In this document: positions 4,314 through 35,837 of the stretch, piece by piece
Layout: each line of letters begins with the position of its first letter
Numbering within the stretch: position 1 is the stretch's first letter
Source: a virus
Virus record (IMG/VR): IMGVR_UViG_3300034071_001405
Location: 4,250-68,249 of that record
DNA length: 64,000 nucleotides
Direction: 5' to 3' (one strand)
The notes under the pieces: model-generated
Databases searched by the model: none
Seen by the model: the letters and a program-made list of their open reading frames with translations, nothing else
What the model was told of the DNA's origin: nothing
Made by a program: the position numbers and the translations under genes

Positions 4314-4353
4314 AGCGTTATAGCAATATAGTGCTAATAAATTTATTATATAC

Positions 4354-4392
4354 ATCTACAGAATGTAAATCTTCAAGGTTTATTCTGTAGAT
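4354..4392. repeat. Intergenic inverted repeat overlapping a putative promoter
   Basis: ATCTACAGAAT (4354-4364) / ATTCTGTAGAT (4382-4392) enclosing near-palindrome AAATCTT-C-AAGGTTT. Confidence 0.75.
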
Positions 4393-4436
4393 TATATATG
4401 AACAAGAACAAAAAAACAAACCAACAACATTAACTT

Positions 4437-16458: not shown

Positions 16459-17130
16459 ATGATAACAATATTAGAAGCTACATCAAGAATAAGAAACTTA
16501 ATTAAGTCTGTAAAGCAAGATGCTTTTTTGACAGATAGGTTTTTGTATTCTGTAATAATGAAGCACGCAAAACTATTAATGCGTAGACAGGACAACCTGC
16601 ATCGTATTATGAAATTTAACTCTGTGTTTCAAACACTTGACTTTGTAGAACTTATAGATGTTGACAGAGCTCAAGCAGAGTGTCGTTGTATTTCTACAGG
16701 ATGTACTTTTAAACGCACAAAAGAAAAACTTCCTCAGATGATAGATGGATACTGGGGCCCTTTGATTAGAGCTGTGACTTCATTAGATTTGTCAGAAGAA
16801 TTGACACCTACATTTCCAACTACTTTTGAGCAGATGAGTCGCCAAAAAACTTTTAAGTACAACAAGAAAAAGTATTACTGGTATTTGAATGGTTATCTTT
16901 ACTTTCCAAACTTGGAGTGGGATGCTATTCGTTTAGAAGGAGTTTTTGAAGGTGATATTTCACAATACAACTGTGACCCTGCTGATAACTGTGAATACAT
17001 ACAAGACAAAACAATAAACATACCTGAGTACTTGTTTACAGAAATTGAGCAATTGGTGATGAGAGATTTAGGTGTTTTATTACAAATACCACAAGATATT
17101 CAACATGACAATAAACATGTTGTTAGATAA
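16459..17130 (+). CDS. Tail ring/tubular protein
   Basis: 223 aa; YYWYLNGYLYFPN and IPEYL...IEQLV segments; synteny. Confidence 0.65.
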   Translation: MITILEATSRIRNLIKSVKQDAFLTDRFLYSVIMKHAKLLMRRQDNLHRIMKFNSVFQTLDFVELIDVDRAQAECRCISTGCTFKRTKEKLPQMIDGYWGPLIRAVTSLDLSEELTPTFPTTFEQMSRQKTFKYNKKKYYWYLNGYLYFPNLEWDAIRLEGVFEGDISQYNCDPADNCEYIQDKTINIPEYLFTEIEQLVMRDLGVLLQIPQDIQHDNKHVVR

Positions 17131-17149: not shown

Positions 17150-18238
17150 ATGTTGACTGAAGTACAATATAGAAACTTTGATGAGCTGATAGACAGTATC
17201 AAAATTGATTTGAGGCACTTTGACCTTGAAGGAATGATAGAGCCTCAACAGCTAATTAAAGTGGCAATTAAGGCTAACTATGAACTAGGGTTGAAAGTAA
17301 ATCCATCACGTTCTAAAGCTATTGAGATTCATAAAGGTAAAGGTAGACTACCTATAGATTTTTATGTTCTTAACTTTGCACTTTTATGTGAAGGTCATAA
17401 AGCTCACTACCAAAGACAAGAGGATATGAAAACATATACTCAAGGATTACTTGAAGGAGCTTTATTAGCACAAAAGCTAAATCAATTAGGTACAGGTAGT
17501 TCAGTAAGACAATATAATGTTACGCTTGATATTGTTCCCGGAGTAAATACCATAACTCACAATCTTGGATCTACTGATATCATGGTGCAAGCATTAGCAA
17601 CTGATGGACAAATTCTTTCATACATTTTAGGAATAGTTTCTGAAAATGCTATAACAATAAATTCACCAGCAAATGTCACTATTACAGATGTTAGAGTTGT
17701 TGTTATGGGAGCTATAAGAGCTTACACAGGTGAAAGTGCAGAAATAACTGCAACACCTGCAGGTACGACAATGGTTCATTATAATGTTCATGGCAAACGT
17801 CATGAATATACATCACTTATACCTATGCGTATTGACAAAAGCAAATCAGTTTCTGCAGATTGTTTTAACTTAAACAGTAAAGACTATCATGCTGCAGTAA
17901 TTAAAAATGGTTTTCTTGTTACAAATTTTGATGAAGGGGTTGTTTATATAAACTACCAATCTTTGATGGAAGATGATGAAGGTAACTTATTAGTTATGGA
18001 TCATCCACTTGTCAATGAGTATTATGAGTATGCGCTAAAGCAACGTATTTATGAGAACCTTTTTATGAGTGGTGAAAATGTAGCAAACTACTTACAACTT
18101 GTAGAACAAAGACTTAGATCTGCACGTAACAACGCATTATCATTTGTGAATACTCCAGACTTTAGAGAACTGAAAGAAGTTTGGGAGATGAACCGCAAAG
18201 CACAATATCACAATTACTATTCAATGTTTAAAGGTTAA
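17150..18238 (+). CDS. Tail ring protein with an inserted beta domain
   Basis: LPIDF, GFLVTNFDEGVVYINY and DDEGNLLV segments; insert containing THNLG...VQ. Confidence 0.6.
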   Translation: MLTEVQYRNFDELIDSIKIDLRHFDLEGMIEPQQLIKVAIKANYELGLKVNPSRSKAIEIHKGKGRLPIDFYVLNFALLCEGHKAHYQRQEDMKTYTQGLLEGALLAQKLNQLGTGSSVRQYNVTLDIVPGVNTITHNLGSTDIMVQALATDGQILSYILGIVSENAITINSPANVTITDVRVVVMGAIRAYTGESAEITATPAGTTMVHYNVHGKRHEYTSLIPMRIDKSKSVSADCFNLNSKDYHAAVIKNGFLVTNFDEGVVYINYQSLMEDDEGNLLVMDHPLVNEYYEYALKQRIYENLFMSGENVANYLQLVEQRLRSARNNALSFVNTPDFRELKEVWEMNRKAQYHNYYSMFKG

Positions 18239-21600: not shown

Positions 21601-24599
21601 AAAATAGTTATGTGTATTTATTTCACAATGGTGTAAGAGATTTTTTTACAGAATCTGAACTAAACATGGCATTTCGTGATTATGGTGAAAATGACTATGA
21701 GAAATTCTATGATGTTTATGGAAACTCCTTTAGTGACTTACCAACAATGTTTAGGTCAGACCTAATTACAAAACCAATTTACCACAAATATGATTTATCA
21801 CTTAGCAGCTCAAAACTCTTCAACAACTTTGCATCCTGGGGGTCTATTCTTCCAAGGGACTATGACCCAAGACTATACTCAACTTGTTTTGAATACTTCC
21901 CTGACAGAGCAATATATTCACTTCAGCAACAAGACGGTCTCAAGAGAGATAATTGGAGAAATTTCTTACCGCTTAACTACAAAGACTTCTCAGGAAAAAT
22001 AAACACAATTAAAAATCTAAACGCTACTGGCGCAATGATTTTGTTTGAAAATGCTGAGCCTTTAATGTTTGTTGGCGTTGACCAATTACAAACGCAAGGA
22101 GGTGTAAAAGTATCTATAGGAGATGGTGGATTATTCCAAGGTAACATGCAAGCATTAGTTAATGCAGATGATACTATTGGTTATGCAAGTAGTATATCCT
22201 CAAGAGCAGCAGTAAACACACCTTTTGGTTTATTCTTTGTATCACAGCAATCAGGTAAAATAATGCAGAATGCTGGAGGTATACAGGAAATATCACGTAA
22301 TGGTATGAAGCATTGGTTTAATGAAAACCTACCTTCAAAAATGTTGGAACAATATCCTGATTTTCCATTGTATGACAACCCTGTTGTTGGCATTGGAGTG
22401 CAGGCTATTTATGATCCACAATATGAACTTGTTTACTTTACAAAACGTGACTATGTACCTTTAAGAGATGATTTGTTCTTTGATGCACCTAATGGTATTC
22501 CTTACTATCTTTGTGGTAACACTGGCGGTGAAGTACTTCCCCCTAGTTGTGTAGCACGTGCGACAGGAAGAATAAGTTCTAATGCATATAGTGAAAGTGG
22601 CATTACATTGTCATGGATACCACCGTCATTATTATCAGGTGAAGATCAGCCAACATCATATCAAATTGTTTTTGCTGTGCAGTTAACACCAGGTGTTTTT
22701 ACATCGTTGGGAACACCATCACCTGTTGTAGTAGCAGGTAACGTAACAAGTAGAAGTTATCCAATGTTATTAACTTATTCTGGTGGAACACATTCTCTTA
22801 ATACATCAGATGTATATAGAATAACTGTAACAACAGTATATCCCTGTGGCGAAATTATTGCTTATGTTACAGGTACATTGGCACAAATTACAGCAGGTAC
22901 AGCTACTATGACATATCCTGATGGTATGGTTGGTTCTGTGATGAATTTTACTCCATTGAATGAACCAGAGTATTGTGTAGCTCCTATAGACATAGCTTTT
23001 GTGCTTGATGTTACAGGTACTATGGGTTCCGTTTTAACAAACTTGCAAAGTAGCATGTCTGCTATTGCTGCAGATATTGCTTTAAAGTCTAACAATAACT
23101 ATCAATTGGGATTACTAACAGTTAATGAATTACCTGGTGGTCCTGAAGCTAACTTTCCAAGAGTAATGTTTTCATTAAACAACATTACAGCATTTCAAAG
23201 TACATTAAACACTTTGACAGTTTGTTGTGGTGGAAATGATCCTGAACCTACTGACATTGGTATTTTAAATGTGTTTGATGGAGCACTTGGAGCTTTTAGA
23301 CCAAATGCTGTAAAGATGATCATCATGATAACAGATGCTTTACCTTCTGGTGGTGATGATACATATACAACAGGTGTTGATAACGTTGCAGTTACTGACA
23401 TTGCAAATGAAGCTGCTTCACTAGGTATAAAAATATATCCTATTGCTACAGGTGTTGGTGTTACTGGTCCATCTGCAGCAACTATAGCAACATTACATAA
23501 TATTTACGCATCTATAAGCGGAGGAGTTTCAAATACTTCAACTACAGGTGAAATTGGTTTTATAATACAAGATGAAATAATAAACGTTCCTTGCCCACCA
23601 CCACAGTTAAACTGCTTAATATCTGCATCAATTCTTAGAATTACAGTAGGTCAAAGTACAACACTTTCATGGGATGCAGGTGATTCTATCAACACAACCA
23701 TTACTGGAATTGGAGCAGTGGCTTCAACAGGAACAAGGGTTGTGTCTCCAACAGTAACAACAACTTATACTTTAATATCAAATGGTTCAAACGGTCTTAG
23801 TTTTAGTTGTTCTGTTACTATTGTTGTAGTACCAGTAACAACAGTAAAGTGCCCATGTGAATTCAATGACCCTGCTTGTTTTACACCTTGTAACTGGACT
23901 ATTAGTTATGACCCTAAAAATAAACAATGGATAAGTTTCCATGATTGGAAACCTACACTTGTGATGCCATCATACAAACACTTTTTTACCATAAATGGTA
24001 ATTCACTATGGAGACACAATGACCGTTGGGATGACTTTTGTAACTACTATGGTGTTGATTATCCATGGGAAGTAGAGTTTCCAGTAGTAACTCCAAACAA
24101 CATTACTACATTAAGAAGTATAGAATACACTCTTGATGTTTATAAGTTTTTCAATGATGGTAAGGATTTTCATCATATATTAGATGAGAATTTTGATAGA
24201 GCAGTGTTGTACAACTCAGAACAAATATCAGGTCTTCTCAGACTTAGGTTAAAGGGTAAGAATGCTCCTTTAGACTTAGTAAATTATCCTCAACTTTCTG
24301 CAAATGGTATTGATATCTTATACAGCAAAGAAGAGAACAAGTTTCGCTTCAACCAGTTTTGGGACATTACAAGAGACCGTAGTGAATTCAACACTACACG
24401 TAATCCTATGTTTAATACAATATGTGCAGGATACCAAAAAGACATTAACCCAAATTACATAGACTACTTTAAATCAACACTTGAACGCAAGAAGTTCAGA
24501 CACTATGGTAACAGTATCATATTGCGTAAAAACCTAAGCGAAGATAAGAAGTTCATACTTAAACTTTCTAACACAAAACAATTGAACAGTTCCAGATAA
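18615..24599 (+). CDS. Muzzle/tail stabilisation protein with FN3-vWA-Ig-like insertion, 1994 aa
   Basis: NTFNKGM start; GYMRDEVYSF, IRHHKMP, GGDVYI and WISFHDWKP segments; synteny before the cargo genes. Confidence 0.8.
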   Translation: MSENFTNTSSVKTNTFNKGMVKDNTEIYMSEGLWTNAINAINNSHHGESGSIGNEPSNRLCASAPYTIIGFANISQTRWVIFSTNDTDSEIGIFDESDCTYTLTVNDPCLGFKRTHLITAVVKGNYDCTDSAYFADNLNPDRVLNLNRVPYKVIGDTNPDPDCYEPEYSTDLDCDALRLHPLVDQPCVSVIKSQGAGQLNNGSYMAVVAYSENGVRLTDYSIPSVPQPLWDHTGIGGSLEVTVDRLDQNFEEYELVIIATVNQQTIAKKIGYYSIRQKTVTVDLFQQSLITVDITQIPLRSVVYEKSEKLFDVNGYLIRTGVTTQPYFNYQELANKIKSQWVAVEYPVDYYWGSGNKTGYMRDEVYSFFIRWVYKTGARSASFHIPGRIANPTDLQAVATPDVLYPNETQVWQVYDTATKFNATGTLPDGGVIIAKGDMAFWQSTERYPDDRESVWGVLCGKPIRHHKMPSNETTHIHNQGGDKIVLLGVEFSNIEHPIDENGLPIVDVVGYEILRGSREGNRSIVAKGMFNNMLEYDLPGNTTKKGLIQNYPYNDLRPDNFLTDDFSVLDSGSGSPGNIEETSKLNKYKNNIFSFHSVETSFVKPYLGTNHIKIYTEERGVVNGKFEFPHKHPKHIIITNFAFTVAALVGAGIAAVASIGKTTVTGGQYPLVAASGSPFGSATRESGTGSITADLIGANALQLSSGFAAAGTLGTAAGIAALGVSYAYYWGQGLDQALEVIRNFSKPRQYMLQYNSHGFYSNYSNVSNSNVPSGLSQSIRRAVSDSGAKYIGSGLHDLDATFRINNLNRNKYVALKLQGTVPNPSSSVDKTKHRIKDGGVTYEEPTKNEVRNDTVAYYGAVKVDFQNQYGQLSSIVQLPTDSCVYNTVPQLLVKNTTGVLFGGDVYINRYTEKNPYMFFNTWMFDMPENTEYDYRNYVNGPAPRYWVNYERFDGQDFNVSILPNFPSGPLVDFTTPSDQHRLDRPSSVTGTLVVKNSYVYLFHNGVRDFFTESELNMAFRDYGENDYEKFYDVYGNSFSDLPTMFRSDLITKPIYHKYDLSLSSSKLFNNFASWGSILPRDYDPRLYSTCFEYFPDRAIYSLQQQDGLKRDNWRNFLPLNYKDFSGKINTIKNLNATGAMILFENAEPLMFVGVDQLQTQGGVKVSIGDGGLFQGNMQALVNADDTIGYASSISSRAAVNTPFGLFFVSQQSGKIMQNAGGIQEISRNGMKHWFNENLPSKMLEQYPDFPLYDNPVVGIGVQAIYDPQYELVYFTKRDYVPLRDDLFFDAPNGIPYYLCGNTGGEVLPPSCVARATGRISSNAYSESGITLSWIPPSLLSGEDQPTSYQIVFAVQLTPGVFTSLGTPSPVVVAGNVTSRSYPMLLTYSGGTHSLNTSDVYRITVTTVYPCGEIIAYVTGTLAQITAGTATMTYPDGMVGSVMNFTPLNEPEYCVAPIDIAFVLDVTGTMGSVLTNLQSSMSAIAADIALKSNNNYQLGLLTVNELPGGPEANFPRVMFSLNNITAFQSTLNTLTVCCGGNDPEPTDIGILNVFDGALGAFRPNAVKMIIMITDALPSGGDDTYTTGVDNVAVTDIANEAASLGIKIYPIATGVGVTGPSAATIATLHNIYASISGGVSNTSTTGEIGFIIQDEIINVPCPPPQLNCLISASILRITVGQSTTLSWDAGDSINTTITGIGAVASTGTRVVSPTVTTTYTLISNGSNGLSFSCSVTIVVVPVTTVKCPCEFNDPACFTPCNWTISYDPKNKQWISFHDWKPTLVMPSYKHFFTINGNSLWRHNDRWDDFCNYYGVDYPWEVEFPVVTPNNITTLRSIEYTLDVYKFFNDGKDFHHILDENFDRAVLYNSEQISGLLRLRLKGKNAPLDLVNYPQLSANGIDILYSKEENKFRFNQFWDITRDRSEFNTTRNPMFNTICAGYQKDINPNYIDYFKSTLERKKFRHYGNSIILRKNLSEDKKFILKLSNTKQLNSSR
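22981..23580 (+). other. vWA domain within muzzle protein
   Basis: IDIAFVLDVTGTM (MIDAS-like), GGNDPEP, KMIIMITDALP, GIKIYPI. Confidence 0.85.
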
Positions 24600-27500
24600 T
24601 GAAGACCAATAGAGAAATACTGATGAAATTTATATCCACAGAAGGATACAAGCGTAATAGCCCTGACAAAAACAGGCCCTTTAACGTAATTCCTTCTGGT
24701 AATATAACTATGCAGGATGTAGACTTTCCTGTGAAAGGAGTTGATAACTTAGGTAATGAGATGATAATGATGCCAGGTGAAGAGTACACTTTCCCTGGAG
24801 ACTACGTAGTTGAAACACCAATGGCTCAATTAGGAGGTAATACATTTGATTTTGTAAGAAATCAAAACAATCAAGGTTTATTTGAAGATTATAATTTCAA
24901 TAAGTTTAGAGAAACATTACCAGACAATCTCAAAAACACAAATCCTAGTACTTATAACATGAAAGGTTATTGGGAAGCTTTGGGCAAACCTGCAAATTTT
25001 GATTATTCTCAACCAACTGAAGAAGATGGATATTATCACGCTTTTTCAAGAAACCCTAAAACAGGTGAAATATTAAAATCACCAAATCACCCTACTTTTA
25101 AAACAGCAATAGAAAGAGACATACAGTCAGGTTATACTCCTTATGTTTCTCCAGAAGGAAAAGTTTTTACATTTGGTAAAGAAGATAAAGTACCAGAAGG
25201 ATATAGAAAATATCAAGCAGGAGGAACAAGACGTCCTATTTTTACATCTAACCCTAATGATCCTAGGATACAAAATTATGGTGACAGTTTAAATTTGTAC
25301 AACTACTCTAAAAATTTATCAAGATCCTTTCCCAATTTACCAGAAGTAACTGAACAACAATACAAACAGTTACAAGAAAAAGATAATAACTTGTTAAATT
25401 ATGAATTTGACCAAGTTGCATATAAAAAAGATAAAAATGAAGGAAAAGTTAAAAACTTTGATGATTACATTTATAGTGGTAAAAAATCTGAAATACATAA
25501 CACACCTCAATATTTAAAAAATAATCAAATAGAATTAGACAAGTACTCTAGTGATGAAACAGGTAAATATAACATTGAATTACCTGATGGTACAATAAAA
25601 AGTCCTGGTTATTTATATAATGGAAAACCTCAATGGGATGATTATAGTATTTGGAATCCAAATACAAAAACATCTTCACATTACACAAAAAATTTCAGTA
25701 CTGGCAAATATGAATTGAGTCATGTTTTATCAGATAACATAAAACCTATAAAAACAAAATATTTTGGAGAAGATAAAACATTCAAAGGTGATGTTATTAG
25801 TACATCATCTAAATCAACAGGCTGGTATAAAAAAGGAGAAAAACCAGTTTTTAAAACTGATTCTAAGAAAGAATATGTAGATACACACATACCACTTGAA
25901 ACACTTGATGTTTACAAAAAACCTGTTCAACCTGTAATATATAAAAAACAAAAACTTGCAAATAATGCTACACCAACAGAAACACTCGTAGTCACAAAAG
26001 CAGAACTTACACCTACACCTAAAGTAGAAAGAAAAGTAGTTAGTGTTGCACCAGAAGAAGTTAAAGCAGGAACTAAAACTACATCAGGTAAACAAATAGG
26101 AAGTGGTACAGCAGGAGGTAGAATATACAGAGTAAAATATGATAATGGTGAAACTGAAATTCTCAATGAATTTGAATACAGAAGTAGAGGTTTAAAAATG
26201 CAAGAAGGAGGACAAACAGGATGGTTGGATAACTATCAAGATGGTGGACCCCAAATGTACCCGGGGCCTAGCTTGCAATTTCAACAACAAGTACAGAACT
26301 TTGTTAACAAAACACCTAATACCTTTGTAAGACGCGAACCTATAACTGTAAGTCAATCAGACAACACAAGAACAAATGCTGTAGAGAATGCAAAAAGAGA
26401 TTTAGAATCATACACGCCACAAGAAAGAGCATACTTTGCACAAAACAATATACCTAGAGACCAATGGTTTTCTGCAAAAACTAAAATGCAAAATGATGCT
26501 GTTCTAAAAAGAAGAGAGGAAGTAAGAAAACAAGCTCAAGTAGATGTAGAAAACAATTTTTTCAAAAGCACAAAAGCAACCAACGAACAACTAAGAAATG
26601 AATTTAGGTTGTTTCCAAATGACCCTAACAGTTTCTTTGATGAGTATTTAAATGTCCCTAATCACATAGGTAATTTTGCTGCAAGTTTAGGAGAAAATTT
26701 TACAGGTGAGCAACCTTTTGATCCTTGGAAACTGGCCACAGATATTGTAACACCTGCTTTTGTAGGAATGACAGCAGGAATAGGTGCACAAAATACTGGA
26801 CAGTTTGTTAATAATTTGATAAATCCTTTAGCAGGAATAGGCAACCCTTTAAAACGTTCTGTCAATATAACTTCTTCAGTAGATAATGTTATTCAACCAG
26901 CTACTCCAAAACCATGGCAAATGCAAGAACTTCCAGGATTACATTTAAAATCTACAATGGAAGGAGAAGCTATTTCTAAAATAATAGAACCTAAAACTGG
27001 ACTGATAAATACAGAACAAGCTCTTGCAATTATAGGAAAAGAATCAGGAGGTGCTGATAAAGTTGCTTTGATAAGACAAGGATTAGGGGATAATATTCCA
27101 CAAAAGATGGATTATAATGATTTTAGAAAAACTGTACAAGACCAACTTATTCCTTTAGAAAAACAGTTCTCTACAAGAAAAAGTGATTATGGAATAGACA
27201 GACTTGGGTATAATTATGGTACAGTAGAAGAAAATATTGGAGGTACTTTTAATGTTTATGGTAATCCTACAAAATTCAAAACAAGAAAAGAAGCTGAAGA
27301 ATTTTTAAAACTTAATAGTCCTATTGAAAACCAAACTCTTATATTAGGAAACAAAAATAAATTTGGTAGAGGTTCTGATGCTCATGGTAATCCTGAAGAA
27401 ACACTAGGTCACGCTCATTTTTTAAGAGATGCTGAAACTCCTGATGTATTAACAGTAACACAAATACAATCTGATGCTTTTCAAGGTACACATAGAATAA

Positions 27501-30484
27501 TGCCTAAAGATTCTAAAAACTTAACAGCTTTAGAAAAACAACAAAACTCTTTAGCAAGAATGGAAGAATTACAAGAACGTAATAAATCTATTCTTAATAA
27601 AATGAAAACAGAAGGTGTTGATGAAGCAGGATTACCAGTTCAAGATTATCAAATAAGACAATTTGAAGATATAGTAAAAGCACAAGAAAACGCTAACATA
27701 TTTAAAAAAGCGGATATTGAAAACTTTACTCAAAAACAACTACTTGATAAAAATCATCAAGAAAGATACTTGCAAGAACTTGTAGACTATGCAGGTAAAA
27801 GAGGTGATGTAAATAAAATGAGAGTGCCTACAAGTGAAACTGCTGCTAAAGTTCAAGGGTACAATCCTATTCAAGAATCAACACTAGGCCCTATAACAAA
27901 AAAACAACTTGATGAATCATCTACATTTGAAGAATTTTTTACACTAAAGGACGAAGAAATAAAGAAAGAAATAGGTGATTATGAATTAAACAGTGAAGAA
28001 ATAAATACAATTAAAAAAATATACAATGATTATAAAGCTGGTAAGTTAGGAAAAGTGTATGACCCAGCTCATACTACCATCCTTAAAAAATATGAGGAAC
28101 AACCTAAGACTATAAAAAAACTTTTTGGTAAAGAACCTACAATAGTAACAGATAGTAAAGGCAATACTTGGTATGAGTTTGACATTCCTGAAAAATTTAA
28201 AAAAGGAAAAGGTGAAATTAAAGCATTTAGTATGTTACCTGCGATACCTGCAGCAGGAGCTGTGGCAGGTTCAGTAAATAATGAAAAACGTGATGGAGGT
28301 GAAATTGGATGGTTAGAACAATATCAAGAGGGAGGACCACAAATGTATCCTAGACCAAGTTTAGAATTTCAACAGAAAGTACAAAATTTTATCAAAAATG
28401 AACCAAACAAGTTTTACAGACGTTCTCCTGTACAAGTAAGTCAGAGTGATAATACAAGAACTAATTATGTAAATGAAGCAAAAAAACAAATAGAATCTTA
28501 TTCTGAAGATGAAATCAAATACTTTTTAGATAACAAAATACCAAAAGATAAATGGGGCATAGAAAAAGTTAAATTACAACAACAAAATGAACTGCGTGCT
28601 AGAGAGTCTGCAAAAAAACAATCTATTGAAGATGTAAAAAACAATCCTTTTGCCATTACTAGAGCAACTAATGAAAATCTTAGAAATGAGTTTAGACTAT
28701 TTCCAAATCAAACTGACAGTTTTTTTGATGAGTATCTAAACCCTGCACAGATGATAGGTAATTTGGCAGCTAGCATAGGAGACAACTTTACAGGTGAAGG
28801 ACCAATAGATCCTTGGAAATTAGCTACTGATATTGTAACACCTGCGTTTGTAGGAATGACGGCTGGTATTGGAGCACAAAACACAGGACAATTTGCAAAT
28901 AACTTAATTAACCCTTTAGCAGGAATGAGAAATCCTTTGTCTAGAGTAAGCTCAAAAATTGAACCTATTGATAATGTTTTAGATAAAGGTGTACTAGAAG
29001 AAATTAGATATGCTTTCCATAATAATCAAAGAAGATTGTCAGCTGATGAACGTAAAATTTTATATCAATATGGAACTGGACAACCTTCAGACTATTTTGA
29101 TGAAAATTTACAAAGTTTATCTTCTCAATTTATGCAAGAGCGTGCATCACCAAGGTATAAGCCTCATCTTTTAGCAGATGACTGGCATAAAATGGCAAAT
29201 GGTTTAAGACCTATTAATTACCCTCATTTAACAAGAGAAAGTAATGAGGTTAAACAACATTTGCTAAATAGTAGACGTAACCAATTGCCACCACCACCAT
29301 CAGAAATACAGTTTATGCCTGATGGTACAACACGTGATATATATACTCAACAACCGCAACCTGTAATGCCTACCATGCTTGGAGGTATTGATATAAGAAG
29401 ACCTATTAATGGACATGCTCCAGGTACTGATGAATGGAACAGATTAAATAATCTTCTTCACAGCAGAGCACGTAACAATTATAAACCAAAAAGTGTAAAC
29501 AAGTCTGGGTTAACCAAAGAAGAAACATTGCAGAAAGTTACAGGTAAAGATAAAGATGCCATATCTAAAATGTCAGAAACTGAATTTGAAAATACTGTTC
29601 TTAAACCTGATGGTCAACTTGCAGAATATAGAGCTGATCCATTTGTTGAACAAATGACGTTTGATAGAAGTACAGGAAGGAATGTACTTAAAGACCAAAC
29701 TGTTTTGACAGAACAAGAATATGTTGATGCTTTTAACAGTAATTTAGATTTGCTGAACGATATTATAAAAAGAAGAAATAAATCAGGAGTAGAGTATAGA
29801 GTGAAAGGTTTAAACCCTAATGGCAGCTTAACATTTTATACACCAGAACAAACTATAGCTAACGCAAACAATCCTGTACCAAAACATTATTTAGATGCAC
29901 TTAATAAAATAGATGAACCTGATTTTTTATATAAAAAAACAAGTGATGATAAATTTTATTTTTCTAATATGTCAGGTTCTCCTGGATTTACATCAAAAGA
30001 GGAAGCAAAAAAATGGATTTCTGACTTGATAGATAAAAGAAAAGGAGTAAAAATAAATAGTGGAGAAAGTAATTGGGGTGTAAGACTAAATCCTGGCAAA
30101 TGGAAAGGAAATGTTGAAGACCTTGCTAACACAGAATACTTAAGAAGCATACCTGGTATAGAAATGAGTAATACAACAGCAGGTGTATTTTCAGACCGTG
30201 TGGCAAGAAAAGGAACAGGTGCGTATGAATCAATCAATGAGTATCTTAAAGCTTTAGACTTAGGTAGAGTAAAACCAGGATTTAATTCACAAACAGACTA
30301 TTCAAGAGGAGCTTGGGAAAACTTTATAAAGTCAGGTAGAGGTGTTGGTTTTTATGCTAATCCTAGAACTGTATATGGTTCAATGAAAACTCTAGCTCCT
30401 ATAGGAGTAGGAATAGGTGCAGGTGCTGCATTAAAGACAAAAGAAAAAGGTGGTCAAACTGGATGGTTAGATAAATACAAATAA
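24599..30484 (+). CDS. Modular putative ejected (cargo) polyprotein with internal duplication, 1961 aa
   Basis: Cys-free; modules separated by xxGG motifs; two copies of a ~215-aa unit. Confidence 0.65.
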   Translation: MKTNREILMKFISTEGYKRNSPDKNRPFNVIPSGNITMQDVDFPVKGVDNLGNEMIMMPGEEYTFPGDYVVETPMAQLGGNTFDFVRNQNNQGLFEDYNFNKFRETLPDNLKNTNPSTYNMKGYWEALGKPANFDYSQPTEEDGYYHAFSRNPKTGEILKSPNHPTFKTAIERDIQSGYTPYVSPEGKVFTFGKEDKVPEGYRKYQAGGTRRPIFTSNPNDPRIQNYGDSLNLYNYSKNLSRSFPNLPEVTEQQYKQLQEKDNNLLNYEFDQVAYKKDKNEGKVKNFDDYIYSGKKSEIHNTPQYLKNNQIELDKYSSDETGKYNIELPDGTIKSPGYLYNGKPQWDDYSIWNPNTKTSSHYTKNFSTGKYELSHVLSDNIKPIKTKYFGEDKTFKGDVISTSSKSTGWYKKGEKPVFKTDSKKEYVDTHIPLETLDVYKKPVQPVIYKKQKLANNATPTETLVVTKAELTPTPKVERKVVSVAPEEVKAGTKTTSGKQIGSGTAGGRIYRVKYDNGETEILNEFEYRSRGLKMQEGGQTGWLDNYQDGGPQMYPGPSLQFQQQVQNFVNKTPNTFVRREPITVSQSDNTRTNAVENAKRDLESYTPQERAYFAQNNIPRDQWFSAKTKMQNDAVLKRREEVRKQAQVDVENNFFKSTKATNEQLRNEFRLFPNDPNSFFDEYLNVPNHIGNFAASLGENFTGEQPFDPWKLATDIVTPAFVGMTAGIGAQNTGQFVNNLINPLAGIGNPLKRSVNITSSVDNVIQPATPKPWQMQELPGLHLKSTMEGEAISKIIEPKTGLINTEQALAIIGKESGGADKVALIRQGLGDNIPQKMDYNDFRKTVQDQLIPLEKQFSTRKSDYGIDRLGYNYGTVEENIGGTFNVYGNPTKFKTRKEAEEFLKLNSPIENQTLILGNKNKFGRGSDAHGNPEETLGHAHFLRDAETPDVLTVTQIQSDAFQGTHRIMPKDSKNLTALEKQQNSLARMEELQERNKSILNKMKTEGVDEAGLPVQDYQIRQFEDIVKAQENANIFKKADIENFTQKQLLDKNHQERYLQELVDYAGKRGDVNKMRVPTSETAAKVQGYNPIQESTLGPITKKQLDESSTFEEFFTLKDEEIKKEIGDYELNSEEINTIKKIYNDYKAGKLGKVYDPAHTTILKKYEEQPKTIKKLFGKEPTIVTDSKGNTWYEFDIPEKFKKGKGEIKAFSMLPAIPAAGAVAGSVNNEKRDGGEIGWLEQYQEGGPQMYPRPSLEFQQKVQNFIKNEPNKFYRRSPVQVSQSDNTRTNYVNEAKKQIESYSEDEIKYFLDNKIPKDKWGIEKVKLQQQNELRARESAKKQSIEDVKNNPFAITRATNENLRNEFRLFPNQTDSFFDEYLNPAQMIGNLAASIGDNFTGEGPIDPWKLATDIVTPAFVGMTAGIGAQNTGQFANNLINPLAGMRNPLSRVSSKIEPIDNVLDKGVLEEIRYAFHNNQRRLSADERKILYQYGTGQPSDYFDENLQSLSSQFMQERASPRYKPHLLADDWHKMANGLRPINYPHLTRESNEVKQHLLNSRRNQLPPPPSEIQFMPDGTTRDIYTQQPQPVMPTMLGGIDIRRPINGHAPGTDEWNRLNNLLHSRARNNYKPKSVNKSGLTKEETLQKVTGKDKDAISKMSETEFENTVLKPDGQLAEYRADPFVEQMTFDRSTGRNVLKDQTVLTEQEYVDAFNSNLDLLNDIIKRRNKSGVEYRVKGLNPNGSLTFYTPEQTIANANNPVPKHYLDALNKIDEPDFLYKKTSDDKFYFSNMSGSPGFTSKEEAKKWISDLIDKRKGVKINSGESNWGVRLNPGKWKGNVEDLANTEYLRSIPGIEMSNTTAGVFSDRVARKGTGAYESINEYLKALDLGRVKPGFNSQTDYSRGAWENFIKSGRGVGFYANPRTVYGSMKTLAPIGVGIGAGAALKTKEKGGQTGWLDKYK
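26198..28939 (+). repeat. Diverged intragenic duplication (copies ~26198-26851 and ~28286-28939; partial third at 30440-30484)
   Basis: Shared GGxxGWLxxYQxGGPQMYP, VSQSDNTRTN, LRNEFRLFPN, DPWKLATDIVTPAFVGMTAGIGAQNTGQF, NNLINPLAG. Confidence 0.92.
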
Positions 30485-30495
30485 CAATAAAGAAA

Positions 30496-32736
30496 ATGAA
30501 AAGTCAATTTTTAAAAATAGCTGGTGTGAATTCTGAGAAAGAGTTTTACCAAAAATATCCTTCAGAAGATGTATTTTTTGCAGAACATCCTGAAGCAATG
30601 AACTTCATGCGCAAAGGTGGAGAAATGATAAAACGTGCTGATGGTTCTTACTCTAAGCGTGGCTTATGGGACAACATTAGAGCAAACGCTGGTTCAGGTA
30701 AAAAACCAACAAAGGAAATGCTTGAGCAAGAAAGAAAGATTAGAAAGCAAGAAGGTGGTGAAAGTTTCGAAATGATGCAACAACCTCAAACACAACAAGC
30801 TCAACCGGACATAAGTGCAGCAATTGCAGAAATAAGCAAACTTATAATGCAAGGTGAAGACCCTGCTTCAATCTATGGTGTGATGTTAGAAAGTGGCATA
30901 CCTGAAGATTATGCAAAAGACATTTTAGATGAAGCAATGAGCATGTTGCAAGAGTCTGATATAGAAGAAGAAGATGTTCCATTTGACAATGATGAAATGT
31001 CTGAGTATGAAGAAGAGGATAATTATGAAGAAGAGGAAGAAGAATTTGATTTTGCTGAACCTGATGAAATGAAAAGAGGTGGTTCTATTAAAATAAACCC
31101 AGCCAAAAAAGGAACATTCAAAGCACAAGCTACTAAAATGGGAATGAGTGTAAGAGAGGCTGCTGATTACATATTACGTCATAAAGATGAATACTCACCT
31201 GTAATGGTTAAGAAAGCAAATTTTGCAAACAACTTTGCTAAAGAACTTGGTGGAGAAATATATGACCTTGAGCAATACAAAGATGGTGGAGGAATTCCTG
31301 ATCGCTACCGCAACATGGGTTTCTCAAAAGTAGGAGCAAAAAAGCAATCTACACGCGAAGGTAAGAAATGGATGGTACTTGCTAAAAAAGGTGACCAGTA
31401 CAAAGTTGTCCATGGTGGATGGGAAGGCATGAAAGATTTTAAACAACATGGTTCTGAGAAAAGACGTGAGAGATTTTGGGATAGAATGGGTGGTAAAGAC
31501 TCAGCTAAAGCTAAAGATCCATTCTCACCATTGTATTGGCATAAAAGATTTGGCACATGGCAACAAGGTGGAGAAACACCAGACATGTTTGATTATGAAA
31601 ACTTCAAAGAAGGAGATTTTAGAACTGACATAACTACATCAAACACTCTTGCTAATCTTAAAAATACAAACTTAAATAAAGGCCTTATTGCAGCTAACAC
31701 TTTAGGTGACCCACGTAACATGATGTGGGCACTTCCTGATAGAGGATTTTTAGGAGCATTGAAAGGAGTAGCTGGTGCAGCTGCAGGTCTTTCAGGAACA
31801 GCTTTAGGATATCAAAAGATGTTTTCTGGTAAAAATGAAAATACAGATTCTTATATATCAAACTATGATACAAATGAGTATGGTACTATGGAAGATGTGT
31901 TAAAGAAAAGACAACCTCAAACACCAATGCCTAAACCTACACCAGTTGCTTCTGGACCTTTGACAGGTGGTTCTGGTATGGGTAGTTTATATCTTAATCA
32001 GCAAAAAGAAGATGCTATGCTTGAAGAACTTGGCTTAGATACTTATGAGTGGGCAGGTGTTGTCTTACCGTACATGGTAGCAGGTGGTGTACCAAGAGTT
32101 AATAGTCAACCTGAGTATCCTACTTTTGAAGAATGGCTTGCTCAAAACGCAACACGTTTTGATGTTATGCAAAACTCAGCTAACCAGCAAATGTTGATGG
32201 ACATATGGAAGCGTGAAACAGGACAGAACTTGTTTCCTGCAGCATTTACACCTCAAGCAAATCAGACAGCTACAGTCCCGGCATCAACAGCATCAACAAC
32301 TGGTACTAATGCAGGTACAACTACAACAGAACCTCAAAGAGAATTCAAATCATGGACAAGCACAACTCGTGGTGATGCTGCAGGTCAAATAGCAGCAAAC
32401 AATGCTCTTGCAGGTTTTGGTATGCTCAACACTGTTCGTTCAACTATGAACAATGAAAGAGAATATGAAGACATGTTACGTAGAGTTGGCAACACTGACG
32501 AAAGATACAATGCTTACAATCCTGCAAATCCATTTGGAAATTACACTCCTAATGCTGGACCAGCTTCTAACTTTGCTTTAGTAACAAACACACCTATACA
32601 AGATTTTGGTACTAGAATGGCTGGAGCAAAATATGGTGGAACAGCACAATACACAGAAGGAGGAGAATACTACGTTTCAGATGAAGAAGTGAAAATGATT
32701 CTGGCAATGGGAGGTCAGATAGAATACCTAGACTAA
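30496..32736 (+). CDS. Modular putative cargo protein, 746 aa
   Basis: Ten xxGG motifs separating short basic or acidic modules; Cys-free. Confidence 0.6.
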   Translation: MKSQFLKIAGVNSEKEFYQKYPSEDVFFAEHPEAMNFMRKGGEMIKRADGSYSKRGLWDNIRANAGSGKKPTKEMLEQERKIRKQEGGESFEMMQQPQTQQAQPDISAAIAEISKLIMQGEDPASIYGVMLESGIPEDYAKDILDEAMSMLQESDIEEEDVPFDNDEMSEYEEEDNYEEEEEEFDFAEPDEMKRGGSIKINPAKKGTFKAQATKMGMSVREAADYILRHKDEYSPVMVKKANFANNFAKELGGEIYDLEQYKDGGGIPDRYRNMGFSKVGAKKQSTREGKKWMVLAKKGDQYKVVHGGWEGMKDFKQHGSEKRRERFWDRMGGKDSAKAKDPFSPLYWHKRFGTWQQGGETPDMFDYENFKEGDFRTDITTSNTLANLKNTNLNKGLIAANTLGDPRNMMWALPDRGFLGALKGVAGAAAGLSGTALGYQKMFSGKNENTDSYISNYDTNEYGTMEDVLKKRQPQTPMPKPTPVASGPLTGGSGMGSLYLNQQKEDAMLEELGLDTYEWAGVVLPYMVAGGVPRVNSQPEYPTFEEWLAQNATRFDVMQNSANQQMLMDIWKRETGQNLFPAAFTPQANQTATVPASTASTTGTNAGTTTTEPQREFKSWTSTTRGDAAGQIAANNALAGFGMLNTVRSTMNNEREYEDMLRRVGNTDERYNAYNPANPFGNYTPNAGPASNFALVTNTPIQDFGTRMAGAKYGGTAQYTEGGEYYVSDEEVKMILAMGGQIEYLD

Positions 32737-32843
32737 AAGTTCTACAATTTACTTCTACAAAAATAGGAAAAATCAAATTAAATTTGTAACTTCTAAATGT
32801 AGGAGATTTAACATTTTAAAAGTTTAAACTCTATAAGTTTATC

Positions 32844-35837
32844 ATGCAAAAAATACGCATAACCAAAACACCAAAAACAGGAGACCAACGTGATTTTTCA
32901 CTGGTTCACAAACAAGCACATTATATCAATGATGGCGAAACAGTAAATCCTGTAAAAAACACCATGGGTGCAGTTCCCATAGAACAAGCTAACATAGAAG
33001 TAGAAGGAGGAGAAACAGTTGTAGGTGATGTTAACCGCGATGGTTTCTTAGAACACATGACTTTTGTTGGCAAGCGTCACTCACAAGGTGGAATGCCTGT
33101 AAACATACCTGAAGGTTCTTTTATCTTCTCAGATACTAAAAAGCTTAAAATCAAGGATAAAGAAATACTTGGTAAAGTGTTTGGCTTGTCTGCAAAAAAA
33201 GGAGGTTATACACCTGCTGAAATTGCAAAGAAGTATCAAATAAACAACTACATTCATGATTTGAAAAGTGAAAGCACTGACCCTATTACTAAACGTTCTG
33301 CAACACAGATGTTAGCGAACAACATGGAAAAGTTAGGAATGCTTGCTTTAGTACAAGAATCAATGAAAGGATTTCCTGATGGCATACCTGCTATTGCTGA
33401 ATCTGTCATGGCCGGTTTACAAGGAGGTGGTGCTGAAGAAATGCCACAAGGTAAATTTGGTGGACTTATGAAGGCTCAAGCTGGTGGGACTTTACTTCCA
33501 GGTACATCTTTAAATATTAACGGTAAGACCGTTAAAGTCAAATCTGTTTACAGTGGTATAACAGGTAAAGACTGGGTTAAATTTGAAAAACCAATAATTT
33601 TAAAAAACTCAAGAGGAGAAAATGTTAAAATTGAAGAGTTAACTTTAGAAGACATTCAAAAAGCGCAATCACAAGATGTTCAACTTGGGGCTGACAAAGG
33701 TTGGTTTAACAGCGGTTACAGAAACATTCAATCATTGAGTGGAAGTGACGTAAGTGCTGCTCCTTTATCAGGCATAGAAAAACTTGGTGATAAAATTTTT
33801 AATTATGGATATCCAACTGTAGCTTTAAGAATTGGAACATTGCCAAAGCAATCAACATATAAAGTAGGAGACATTCTTTATAAAAATAACGTAAAGTACA
33901 AAGTTGTAGATCCTGCTGTACATAATTATTCAGGAAAACCATTGTTAGAATTGGAAGAATTGGATGATCCAAATACATTTATTCAAAGTTGGGGAAATGC
34001 TACAGGAAAAAGAAAAACAGTTTCTTATGATCAGATTGGAACTTTCACGTCATTAACCAAATCAGGTGTATCAAATACAAGTCAAAAAGAAGAGAAAGTT
34101 CCCAATGATTTAAATCAACAGTCAATATACACAAATAAACAAAAGGCACAAACAAGAGATGGTGAACCATTAACTGTTGGACAATATAAAGATAACAAAT
34201 GGTACAACGTGTACACAGGTCTACCTGTTGACTGGAAGCCACAAGGTTTTGAAACTGATACAAATAAAGCTAAACCTGCTGTAAAACAAACAGCTACAAA
34301 ACCTGCAACTCCAAAACCAGCAGTAAAACCTAAAACGTATTCTGAGGTTTTATCTTTATTTGCAATGGGTGGTCAATTACCAGAATATCAACAAGGTGCA
34401 GAAGCTAAAACTACCCAGCCTGAAACAGAAACTCTTGCTGGCACATACACACTACCAGATGGTAAAGTAGCTTATGTTTATTACACAGCAACAGAAAAGA
34501 TTGTAAAAGATGTAAACGGTAACGTTCAAGATCGTGCACCAAGAACTGATAAAGCAGCATATGCTCCACACAAAGGTGATGTAAACCCTTCAACAAATCC
34601 TATCACTGGTCAAAAAGAAACAGGATGGAACAAGTCTAAATATACTGCTGACCAAATAGATGCACTTGCTAGAGAAAGAGGATATACTGGTCCTAAAAAT
34701 AACAAAGCTCTTCAACAATGGATTTTGTCCAAACCAGAATTTTCAAAAGTTGTAGAGGAATTGCATGCCAAATACAAAATTCCAGCAGCAGGTATAAAAG
34801 ATGATGGTTTCTGGGGTGTTAGATGGGATGATATTTTAGAAAAGATTCCTTCAGTACCTAGCACAACTACAACACCTGCACCTGTGACGGGAGCTCAACA
34901 ACCTGTAACTCCTAAAGAAGATTTTGTAGTTCCTGAACCTGCAATGCCACAAGCTCCTAAAACTGGGCCATGGTGGTTACAAGACATTACCAACTTTGTG
35001 GGAACTCTGACAGATGATATAAATCGTTATGAGCCAACACAAGGAAGAGTAGCATTACAAACTCCAGGTTATGTAACTCTTGACCCTACCAGACGTTTAG
35101 CTGCAAATCAAGAGCAGTTTGCTAGAATGCAACAAATGACAGAAAATACTGTTGACGGTAATGTTGGATTAGCATCAATGACTGGTACACAAGGACAATC
35201 ATTTGCAAATGCTGCCAATGTTCTTGGAGATGTTGAAAATGCAAATGTTGGAATTGTTAACCAAGCATACAATACAAATGCACAGATAATGAATCAAGAA
35301 GCTGCTGCAAATGAAGTAGGTAGACAAAAATATGTTGAGGACATGGCTACATTAAATCAACAGTTGGACAACTCTGAACAGCAAAATAAATGGCGTCAAA
35401 TTGCTGCTTTCAACAATGGTACTACAAACTGGTTTAGAAAAAAACAAATGGAACAAATATTGTTTCCAGATGTGTATGTTGACCCAATCTTAGGAGATGT
35501 ATCTATTGACCCTAGTGGAAGAAGTTTATTTGGACCTGACACATATTCACCAAGTTATATGGATAACAGAGGTGGTAATAACATGATGTCAGGTAATGCA
35601 GGAATTGAAGAATGGAATGCAATAGTTCAAGAAGCAACACCTATAATGGGGCCAGAAGAAGCTAAAAAATATGCTACAATGTATATGGGTAATCAAATGA
35701 GAGCACAAAATAGAGCAGTTACAGGCTTGACTCCACGTCAACAATATAATCAAATGGCAATTCAAGGATTAACATTACCTTTGCCTCCTAGAGAATTTGG
35801 TGGTGTGGTATATTTTCCTTGGTCAGATATAGAATAA
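32844..35837 (+). CDS. Putative cargo protein (cargo protein 1-like), 997 aa
   Basis: N-terminal ANIEVEGGETV...GKRHSQGG...FIFSD block; Gln/Asn-rich helical C-terminus; possible peptidoglycan-binding-like LQQW...DGFWG. Confidence 0.6.
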   Translation: MQKIRITKTPKTGDQRDFSLVHKQAHYINDGETVNPVKNTMGAVPIEQANIEVEGGETVVGDVNRDGFLEHMTFVGKRHSQGGMPVNIPEGSFIFSDTKKLKIKDKEILGKVFGLSAKKGGYTPAEIAKKYQINNYIHDLKSESTDPITKRSATQMLANNMEKLGMLALVQESMKGFPDGIPAIAESVMAGLQGGGAEEMPQGKFGGLMKAQAGGTLLPGTSLNINGKTVKVKSVYSGITGKDWVKFEKPIILKNSRGENVKIEELTLEDIQKAQSQDVQLGADKGWFNSGYRNIQSLSGSDVSAAPLSGIEKLGDKIFNYGYPTVALRIGTLPKQSTYKVGDILYKNNVKYKVVDPAVHNYSGKPLLELEELDDPNTFIQSWGNATGKRKTVSYDQIGTFTSLTKSGVSNTSQKEEKVPNDLNQQSIYTNKQKAQTRDGEPLTVGQYKDNKWYNVYTGLPVDWKPQGFETDTNKAKPAVKQTATKPATPKPAVKPKTYSEVLSLFAMGGQLPEYQQGAEAKTTQPETETLAGTYTLPDGKVAYVYYTATEKIVKDVNGNVQDRAPRTDKAAYAPHKGDVNPSTNPITGQKETGWNKSKYTADQIDALARERGYTGPKNNKALQQWILSKPEFSKVVEELHAKYKIPAAGIKDDGFWGVRWDDILEKIPSVPSTTTTPAPVTGAQQPVTPKEDFVVPEPAMPQAPKTGPWWLQDITNFVGTLTDDINRYEPTQGRVALQTPGYVTLDPTRRLAANQEQFARMQQMTENTVDGNVGLASMTGTQGQSFANAANVLGDVENANVGIVNQAYNTNAQIMNQEAAANEVGRQKYVEDMATLNQQLDNSEQQNKWRQIAAFNNGTTNWFRKKQMEQILFPDVYVDPILGDVSIDPSGRSLFGPDTYSPSYMDNRGGNNMMSGNAGIEEWNAIVQEATPIMGPEEAKKYATMYMGNQMRAQNRAVTGLTPRQQYNQMAIQGLTLPLPPREFGGVVYFPWSDIE

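Follow-up and report, generated by a model that had tools for sequence, protein, structure and literature searches.

What is the role of the Gly-Gly element that recurs in three consecutive large proteins of a crAss-like phage locus and also stands at the end of each of them? The locus lies in a 64-kb window (the whole stretch of DNA analysed, 64,000 nt) of the 68,249-nt contig IMGVR_UViG_3300034071_001405 from IMG/VR, which forms one long operon on the plus strand. The contig is incomplete, with the replication half of the genome lying outside the 68,249 nt. The three open reading frames (ORFs) encode proteins of 1961, 746, and 997 amino acids (aa), designated here as P0001, P0002, and P0003. 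A first-pass annotation had described the element as a recurrent xxxGG signal and proposed cleavage or capsid loading as its function. We found that the punctuation is real, specific, and widespread, that it is not simply 'xxxGG', and that about half of the sites listed in that annotation are module boundaries. As to its role, we tentatively favor an uncleaved glycine hinge combined with a docking or loading peptide.

The repeated element

The 21 xxxGG pentapeptides listed initially are all present in the three plus-strand ORFs, at the coordinates given for them, but the list was selective, comprising 21 of the 35 GG dipeptides. The 14 unlisted GGs are located at residues 506, 817, 881, and 1595 of P0001, 265, 307, 332, and 491 of P0002, and 55, 82, 120, 194, 195, and 910 of P0003. 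The counts of bare GG, in comparison with those expected from composition, were 11/10.7 (P0001), 14/7.1 (P0002), and 10/8.1 (P0003); the pooled count of 35 exceeded the shuffle mean of 25.8 and was reached in 9 of 300 shuffles. Since this enrichment was weak, we replaced the xxxGG definition with a longer element, [M/Y/W/F]-[K/R/Q/E/A]-x-G-G-[E/Q]-hydrophobic. Its core, [MYWF][KRQEA]xGG, which was defined post hoc after viewing the homologue logo, occurs nine times in the three ORFs (0.9 expected), as compared with 2 (1.5 expected) in five other giant ORFs and 0 (0.6 expected) in the remaining 17. The muzzle-like ORF directly upstream of the P0001 ORF contains none of the refined motifs. The enrichment is thus weak for bare GG, but strong and specific to these ORFs for the longer motif. 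The GGs often occur in close pairs, as had been noted earlier: GG-x(6-12)-GG was found seven times (1.1 expected), with two of the pairs supplied by the 231-aa internal duplication of P0001. GG followed by Q or E was found 11 times (3.2 expected). None of 300 shuffles reached the observed count of the core motif, the pairs, or GG followed by Q/E.

The same preferences were observed among the homologues. A logo of 1418 distinct GG contexts from the P0002 homologues showed M/W/Y/F at P5, R/Q/E/A/K at P4, and E/I/Q at P1'. In the 1421 contexts taken from the three families together, E and Q account for 20% and 10% of P1', and I/L/V/Y for 53% of P2'. The median spacing of the motif is 94 aa. The family-wide motif counts were 469 versus 41.8 in shuffles (119 homologues of P0001), 874 versus 58.2 (119 homologues of P0002), and 277 versus 42.6 (150 relatives of P0003), corresponding to a 6- to 15-fold excess in 388 homologues; these counts are not independent events, as the homologues share kinship.

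The Gly codons at the 21 sites (GGT 23, GGA 18, GGG 1) resemble the Gly codons overall. Ordinary codons at the motif sites indicate that selection acts on the peptide rather than on the DNA. A DNA-level recombination signal at the joints was also considered and rejected, as the codon use is ordinary.

Cargo identity and module boundaries

Downstream of the tail ring genes, the three ORFs are preceded by the muzzle (gp44) gene and followed by the virion RNA-polymerase genes, and BLAST links the locus to crAss001 gp44, gp45, gp47, gp49, and gp50. Because they occupy the same place as the 'cargo proteins' described in the crAss001 structure paper (PMC10172136), their products are most likely internal cargo (ejection) proteins. 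With a portal only 22-33% identical to that of any named phage, this is a divergent crAss-like phage. The cargo-type assignment of the first-pass annotation is thus borne out by the crAss001-like gene position, the partial homology to these five crAss001 proteins, and the mosaic modules described below.

Recognizable domains are scarce. DUF5754 in P0002 is the sole domain that Pfam identified in the window's own three proteins. P0001 and P0003 had no match in Pfam, PHROG, or PDB sequences (phmmer for PDB), and P0002 likewise had no phmmer match to PDB sequences. The P0001 core matched only unnamed viral clusters in the Protein Atlas (score 0.81), and its tblastn search against 50,697 phage records gave no match. 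Relatives are nevertheless numerous: 147 homologues of P0001 in its length class, many with lysin, SET, DUF5872, or DUF5754 domains, and 1660 and 1695 database relatives of P0002 and P0003, respectively. Some relatives lie on contigs of 100-125 kb. A search of viral contigs for related loci with P0002 as the single query confirmed none. P0002 and crAss001 gp45 align over 54 aa (40.7% identity, E 0.007), and the same gp45-type module was found by tblastn in seven phage records. The masses of the full-length P0001, P0002, and P0003 are 220, 84, and 110 kDa.

The three proteins are mosaics of exchangeable modules, and the relatives combine DUF5754, DUF5872, SET, CHAP, SLT, lysozyme, amidase, glucosaminidase, and LysM domains, the order of which varies. 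Residues ~781-1200 of P0001 are common to 103 of the 119 fetched homologues, and the whole protein resembles three units in series. Its N-terminal 80-aa module also heads several P0002 homologues (rows P0009, P0012, P0020, and others of alignment A1), implying that modules move between cargo genes. In a 15-sequence alignment of P0002 and its relatives, GG 87/88, 195/196, 252/253, 264/265, 358/359, and 739/740 are invariant, despite module swaps and insertions alongside them. At residue 360, directly after the joint WQQGG, modules are inserted in 7 of 14 rows of relatives.

The first-pass annotation had placed the motifs at module boundaries. We defined breakpoints as the BLAST alignment endpoints of homologues less than 90% identical, and counted those within ±6 residues of a motif. 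In P0002, 65% of 312 endpoints lay near the listed GGs, versus 18% in permutations (0/2000), and five of seven endpoint peaks coincided with them. The corresponding values were 23% of 485 endpoints versus 5% (12/2000; two of nine peaks) for P0001 and 16% of 420 versus 6% (65/2000; one of ten peaks, with one further peak at the unlisted GGG194) for P0003. Eleven of the 21 listed motifs have at least 16 endpoints within ±6 residues, as compared with a median of 0-2 for random positions, whereas the other ten have six or fewer; the claim therefore stands for about half of the list. The unlisted GGs of P0003 at residues 194 and 910 are also located at breakpoints. Major breakpoints without a nearby GG occur at ~34, 755-771, and 1213 in P0001 and at ~650-706 in P0003.

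Gly/Ala-rich hydrophobic stretches resembling glycine-zipper membrane segments were also noted on the plus strand at ~26750-26830, ~28840-28920, ~30400-30440, and ~31740-31810. They include VTPAFVGMTAGIGAQNTG, which is found in both copies of the repeat, LAPIGVGIGAGAAL, which precedes the P0001 tail, and GALKGVAGAAAGLSGTALGY in P0002. These candidate stretches recall the predicted transmembrane helix of crAss001 gp45.

Joints and C-terminal tails

All three proteins, encoded by consecutive ORFs, end with GG and a 6-10-residue tail, in agreement with the earlier remark that each has a GG near its C-terminus, and they are the only ones to do so among 25 ORFs. In the other 22, a GG within the last 12 residues was found only in the major capsid protein, which ends with TGGSF. 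The protein ends are GGQTGWLDKYK (P0001), GGQIEYLD (P0002), and GGVVYFPWSDIE (P0003), and the respective tail peptides are GGQTGWLDKYK, ILAMGGQIEYLD, and FGGVVYFPWSDIE. The last 14 residues of P0001 are a copy of the first half of its internal doubled joint, which begins each copy of the 231-aa repeat. Many P0001 homologues carry the tail family GG(xx)WL[ND]KY[KN], and ILAMGGEIE[FY]LD is common among the P0002 homologues. A GG lies within the last 15 residues in 225 of 391 fetched proteins, and the tails are conserved within each family.

The element is often doubled around a small amphipathic peptide, GG-(0-6 aa)-W-L-x-K-Y-Q-x-GG, typically as [M/K]-K-x-GG-W-L-D-K-Y-Q-x-GG. The P0003 relatives show M[KR]YGG-x-LPKAQ-x-G(G) at the joint that ends the N-domain, with divergence beyond it. 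The module SIKINPAKKGTF..., which follows the joint MKRGG, is common to P0002, crAss001 gp45, and other Crassvirales.

The pattern GG.{0,6}W[LF]..Y was C-terminal in 43 cases and internal in 79 among the 391 fetched proteins, with up to four per protein. The core of the P0001 family ends with ...GEIKAF, after which 15 homologues stop as ...IKAFKDGGWLNKYK, while 11 continue as ...GGWLDKY-Q/N-x-GG followed by 96-981 residues; this comparison used a strict pattern, by which the other 93 of the 119 homologues were unmatched. Since the same orthologous joint is C-terminal in 15 relatives and internal in 11, the element works both terminally and internally, and the two forms appear from these alignments to be the same thing. 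Together, the enrichment, the endpoints, and this comparison show that a recurrent GG signature marks many joints and every C-terminus, as the first-pass annotation had perceived.

Distribution of the element

An exact DNA pattern for GGWLDKY matched at least 120 IMG/VR stretches, and 63 of the 147 matches listed end an ORF. Many of the ORFs carry the element ~50-65 residues from the N-terminus and again at the C-terminus. Among the loci listed, a muzzle homologue was present in 78 of 120 and a relative of P0002 in 74 of 120. In two of them (L002 and L050), muzzle-like genes precede the motif ORFs; in L002, the ORF at 2320-4668 ends with GGWLDKYK and the next ORF begins at once. As a control, 596 gigabases of cellular genomes gave single matches, with a phage-type context in 11 of the 120 matches listed, nearly all of them in tiny ORFs. 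About one-third of the cellular matches listed (L123-L202) were in metagenome-assembled genome contigs of Chitinophagaceae/Chitinophaga, nearly all outside a phage-type context; these could reflect a conserved bacterial protein or hint at the host.

A similar style is seen in a cultured member of Crassvirales, 'Rudgehvirus jaberico', in which gene49 contains 16 GGs (4.1 expected) and ends with YRCGGSVKRKMKR. The literature searched contained no printed instance of GGWLDKY, GGWLNKY, WLDKYQ, GGWLDQY, or GGWLSKY, and the main texts on Crassvirales/crAss001 and ejection proteins gave no account of cargo processing or of the motif. To this extent, we found no description of the element in print.

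Candidate processing proteases

The cleavage proposal of the first-pass annotation was accompanied by the suggestion to search the rest of the genome for a protease. Pfam and PHROG scans identified no clan CE/CA, C39, or other recognizable peptidase in the 31 ORFs of the contig, in which the replication half of the genome is missing. Likewise, no protease match in PHROGs or Pfam was obtained for the ORFs that separate the portal gene from the major capsid protein gene or for neighboring ORFs, and no embedded zincin-like metallopeptidase was detected in the three cargo-type proteins.

HExxH is present in only two proteins of the contig, P0243 and the 4230-aa virion RNA-polymerase-type protein. 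P0243 (121 aa) has the invariant residues H78, E79, and H82 and D95-E96-E97 (HExxH, DEES). Its AlphaFold2 model has a predicted local distance difference test score (pLDDT) of 90.4; Foldseek against PDB found nothing at E <= 0.001, and the highest Z in VIA-align wide was 5.2, no zincin being among the matches listed. Only seven close clusters were found, and the protein is absent from six of six related loci holding both the ring-1 and muzzle genes. In the Atlas, it has a lead of 0.87 to a cluster with 19% Peptidase_M78. P0243 was rejected as the protease, as it has no zincin fold match and is absent from the six loci, and was kept as a weak lead. In the 4230-aa protein, YHEAFH aligns with residue 2157 of crAss001 gp47, and the HEAFH region matched no Pfam peptidase even at E <= 10.

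In crAss001 gp45, the stretch A425-F-G-G-W-L-N-T-Q-G-G435 begins the segment 425-552, which is reported in PMC10172136 as one domain of ordered density on the portal of mature virions. The AFGGWLNTQGG stretch is thus uncut in virions, because it lies inside this ordered segment. A second ordered segment, 214-245, is described there and starts four residues after YGG, and the crAss001 maps also contain an unassigned 14-residue helix at the muzzle. With no protease in the 31 ORFs, a hydrophobic residue at P5, and this uncut stretch, cleavage after GG is not supported.

Known systems

The nearest known protein is crAss001 gp45 (cargo protein 1; PDB 7QOG, 7QOI, 7QOJ, 7QOL, 8CKB; Bayfield et al. 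2023, PMC10172136), whose gene likewise follows that of the muzzle and precedes those of the virion RNA polymerase. P0002 shares with it a module ...IKI..K.KGKFT..., and gp45 is GG-rich, like the three proteins (21 versus 13.3 expected), with YGG and FGG contexts and a doubled FGGWLNTQGG. The differences are that only ~54 aa can be aligned (E 0.007), that the window encodes three such proteins, including one of 1961 aa with serial units, and that the gp45 C-terminus is not a WLxKY tail. The accessible text of the structure paper (PMC10172136) is silent on the motif and contains 'cleav', 'proteoly', and 'protease' 0 times.

Polyvalent proteins (Iyer, Burroughs, Anand, de Souza, Aravind 2017, PMC5512222) are likewise large packaged multidomain mosaics delivered with the DNA. 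The relatives share with them unrelated effector/enzymatic domains in shuffled architectures. An embedded zincin-like metallopeptidase is common, though not obligatory, in polyvalent proteins; here, a candidate HExxH site of this kind lies in the RNA-polymerase-type protein, with no Pfam peptidase match. In the present families, the joint itself is the conserved feature; the accessible text of PMC5512222 defines no junction or cleavage-site motif and mentions 'glycine' and 'linker' 0 times.

By analogy, prohead-protease processing seems the nearest counterpart of cleavage at the element. The systems of T4 gp21, phiKZ gp175, and SPN3US gp245 also have short recurrent motifs in head-internal or ejected proteins, some of which are cut repeatedly. 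Those sites terminate in Glu (L/I-x-E; S/A/G-x-E) and are accompanied by a recognizable prohead protease gene; in the present case, the putative site is GG, and no such gene was found among the contig ORFs. Proteases that act at Gly-Gly include the adenovirus protease, African swine fever virus pS273R, deubiquitinases, and the C39 bacteriocin leader peptidases. Their sites resemble the element in having GG with a hydrophobic residue a few positions upstream. In the adenain consensus, (M/L/I)-x-G-G|x, and likewise in double-glycine leaders, P4 is the hydrophobic position, whereas M/W/Y/F occupies P5 in the logo of 1418 contexts, unlike in the substrates of adenain (clan CE). The element also differs from Gly-Gly protease sites in being repeated internally and followed by a conserved peptide. 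Double-glycine leaders are single N-terminal segments of ~15-30 aa ending in GG, accompanied by a C39 ATP-binding cassette transporter; the present motifs are internal, repeated, and C-terminal, and no C39 domain was found in the ORFs scanned.

The T4 internal-protein targeting sequence and the C-terminal coat-binding helices of scaffolding proteins are short terminal peptides that direct or anchor proteins inside the procapsid. Such capsid-targeting or docking peptides would be the nearest analogue of the role that we favor, although the present element, unlike T4-type targeting peptides, is both C-terminal and internal, flanked by Gly-Gly, and common to three protein families.

Possible roles

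We tentatively read the element as an uncleaved glycine hinge plus a docking or loading peptide, a role that is quite possible rather than probable. Through a short docking peptide displayed by the hinge, the cargo would be attached to, or loaded onto, the inner virion (portal or tail barrel), and the hinges might allow chains of small modules to pass through the portal and tail in a partly unfolded state during ejection. Because the residues between and after the GGs are conserved too, the displayed peptide would be suited to recognition. The earlier idea of capsid-loading tags is compatible with this role. Several observations weigh against it. Ten of the 21 listed motifs lie away from breakpoints. 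The polarity within 15 residues of 1795 motifs was 0.60/0.59, as compared with 0.60 in random windows, so that no linker-like composition was detected. The crAss001 element differs in sequence, and the link to it is one 54-aa module (E 0.007). A profile of the P0003 N-domain (143 sequences) gave no significant match among the crAss001 proteins (gp45, E 0.11 among six sequences). Finally, preferences extending over P5 to P2' are equally expected of a protease site.

Polyprotein processing, in which the elements are sites cut by a phage-borne or host protease, either inside the procapsid or once ejection has occurred, is doubtful but deserves consideration. Units ending like the natural GG...WLxKY C-termini would be produced, releasing many smaller effectors. 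The invariant GG with its side-chain preferences from P5 to P2' and the median spacing of 94 aa are consistent with such sites, and cutting would recreate the unfused products, as the joint is C-terminal in 15 relatives and internal in 11. Some of the modules, DUF5754 and DUF5872 among them, constitute Pfam families by themselves. In addition, PMC5512222 predicts that embedded zincin-like peptidases process packaged polyvalent proteins, YHEAFH is conserved in the co-encoded RNA-polymerase-type protein and crAss001 gp47, and the small invariant-HExxH protein beside the muzzle gene has the weak Atlas lead to Peptidase_M78 (0.87). These points are countered by the lack of a recognizable peptidase family in the 31 ORFs scanned, and by the HExxH protein itself, with its best Z of 5.2, no zincin, and its absence from all six related loci. 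The doubled element of crAss001 gp45 is uncut in virions. The crAss001 virion gel bands of 150, 270, and >300 kDa in PMC6235969 fit full-length RNA-polymerase cargo, although those proteins lack the motif. The N4 virion RNA polymerase, which also has HExxH, is stated to be packaged unprocessed (PMC5512222; PMC13434306), and the passage of the 2026 N4 structure paper (PMC13434306) that mentions HExxH gives no function for it. The hydrophobic residue at P5 differs from the specificities of adenain and double-glycine leaders. Furthermore, conservation of the peptide between the GGs equals that of the GGs themselves, and the conserved tails beyond the last GG would become discarded 6-10-mers. A bolder form of the idea, which we regard as rather unlikely, is that crAss-like cargo proteins are true polyproteins cut at [M/Y/W/F]-[K/R/Q]-x-G-G joints by a new Gly-Gly-directed activity, with the YHEAFH domain or the small HExxH protein as the candidate enzyme. 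Cuts in the particle or on entry would free dozens of small effectors and channel-forming pieces; if true, this would explain why crAss001 gp45 is seen in capsid and tail alike.

It is distinctly unlikely that Gly-Gly is only a passive seam, a permissive linker with no binding or cleavage role where in-frame swaps, fusions, and fissions survive, with the internal copies being fossil C-termini from the fusion of tandem cargo genes. The terminal/internal duality at an orthologous place, the tandem cargo ORFs each ending in a tail in related loci (L002), the appearance of P0001 as three serial units, and the module insertions abutting the GGs would all fit such a history. However, in a passive linker GG would not stay invariant, and hundreds of diverged proteins would not have retained W, L, K, and Y or the preferences at P5/P4/P1'/P2'; the codon use shows no DNA-level recombination signal, and the C-terminal tails are conserved within each family. 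Chance, or an artefact of Gly-rich composition and one internal duplication, is hardly credible. The near-expected bare GG in two of the three proteins, the picking of 21 GGs from 35, and the doubling of one pair by the 231-aa duplication speak for it, but it is already contradicted by the invariant GG columns, the refined motif count reached in 0 of 300 shuffles, and the excess in the 388 homologues; the viral and cellular scans also contrast sharply.

Crassvirales rank with the most abundant phages of the gut and the environment. The loading of megadaltons of protein into their capsid and tail, and its subsequent ejection through a narrow channel, is presented as an open problem in PMC10172136. 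An element that is invariant across thousands of mosaic cargo proteins, and also ends them, offers a concrete handle on this problem. As a loading tag, it could serve to package foreign proteins into crAss-like particles; as a cleavage site, it would point to a phage protease of new specificity and to a DNA phage that uses a polyprotein strategy. The element also provides a simple sequence rule for splitting unannotatable giant ORFs into modules for structure prediction.

Gene neighborhood and further observations

The features of the window are collected in Table 1.

Table 1. Positions of genes, modules, joints, and tails in the 64-kb window.
Feature	Position	Strand	Remarks
Large terminase	71-1567	+	
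Portal	1587-4313	+	
415-aa ORF	4437-5684		uncharacterized; lies after the portal gene and before that of the major capsid protein
Major capsid protein	5734-7383	+	PHROGs
DNA-repair exonuclease, SbcD/Mre11-like	14482-15816	+	phrog_704, E 2.3e-48
Tail ring protein CrAss_Ring_2	16459-17130	+	Pfam; just upstream of muzzle/cargo genes
Tail ring protein CrAss_Ring_1	17150-18238	+	Pfam; just upstream of muzzle/cargo genes
P0243, 121 aa	18243-18608	+	between ring-1 and muzzle genes; phrog_1365 (function not known)
Muzzle (crAss001 gp44)-like protein, 1994 aa	18615-24599	+	phrog_37948 E 8.1e-64; gp44 match E 1.5e-04
Cargo-type mosaic protein P0001, 1961 aa	24599-30484	+	ORF; N-terminal 80-aa module, two 231-aa repeats, conserved core ~765-1215, variable C-terminal part, GG tail
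N-terminal 80-aa module of P0001	24599-24838	+	ends AQLGG; endpoint peak at residue 83, n=55
Doubled joint MQEGGQTGWLDNYQDGG	26198-26248	+	opens the first copy of the 231-aa repeat
Internal repeat copy 1, residues 535-765	26201-26893	+	148/231 identical to copy 2, E 1e-101
Doubled joint KRDGGEIGWLEQYQEGG	28286-28336	+	after conserved core of P0001; endpoint peak (n=28) at residue 1243
Internal repeat copy 2, residues 1231-1461	28289-28981	+	
P0001 C-terminal tail KEKGGQTGWLDKYK	30440-30481	+	12/18 identical to residues 531-547
Cargo protein P0002, 746 aa, partly gp45 (C1)-like	30496-32736	+	DUF5754 E 8.1e-08; modules 1-40, 41-86, 87-194 (acidic), 195-251, 252-263, 264-358 (DUF5754), 359-746
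Joint MRKGG	30607-30621	+	45 endpoints within ±6
Joint KQEGG	30745-30759	+	GG invariant in alignment A1; 35 endpoints
Joint MKRGG	31069-31083	+	before module SIKINPAKKGTF...
Doubled joint KELGGEIYDLEQYKDGG	31240-31290	+	before DUF5754; both GGs invariant in A1; 40 and 33 endpoints
Joint WQQGG	31558-31572	+	after DUF5754; invariant in A1 and A3
C-terminal block AKYGG..YTEGG..ILAMGGQIEYLD	32626-32733	+	conserved as block, without breakpoints
Cargo-type protein P0003, 997 aa	32844-35837	+	ORF; conserved N-domain 1 to ~200, variable middle, conserved C-domain ~670-997
Doubled joint GKFGGLMKAQAGG	33450-33488	+	ends P0003 N-domain; endpoint peak at residue 216, n=43
FAMGG, listed motif	34359-34373	+	not at breakpoint; 1 endpoint
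P0003 C-terminal tail REFGGVVYFPWSDIE	35790-35834	+	tail family FGGxxYxPWxDxE in homologues
ORFs of 886 and 1642 aa	downstream of the three cargo-type ORFs		
Virion RNA-polymerase-type protein, 4230 aa	43474-56166	+	matches to crAss001 gp47 and gp50
HEAFH, candidate embedded zincin-like site	46474-46488	+	in 4230-aa protein
gp49-like protein, 2016 aa	56170-62220	+	BLAST match to crAss001 gp49

The SbcD/Mre11-like exonuclease gene stands in the middle of the structural operon, flanked by tail-fibre-like genes and ring proteins. The muzzle-like protein contains a von Willebrand factor A (VWA) domain (residues 1459-1630, E 3.6e-09), while in crAss001 a VWA-like domain is annotated on the separate protein gp52.

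Upstream of the window on the same contig, a 237-aa ORF (L122:1984-2694, plus strand; G000:C1:1984-2694) matches Pfam ATE_C (E 4.8e-08, 34.1 bits, cutoff 25). ATE_C is the C-terminal domain of arginine-tRNA-protein transferase, and such enzymes add an amino acid to N-terminal Asp/Glu. A connection of this ORF with processed cargo is conceivable, as the residue after the GG joints is often E/Q.

In the 2016-aa gp49-like protein, an N-terminal stretch (residues 146-264) resembles a PD-(D/E)XK nuclease, with an E of 5.9e-04 that falls just below the Pfam cutoff. The 4230-aa ORF fuses gp47- and gp50-like regions, which are separate genes in crAss001, and the C-terminal end of its product contains domains of the 2OG-Fe(II) oxygenase (residues 3689-3905) and RNase H (residues 3999-4156) types.

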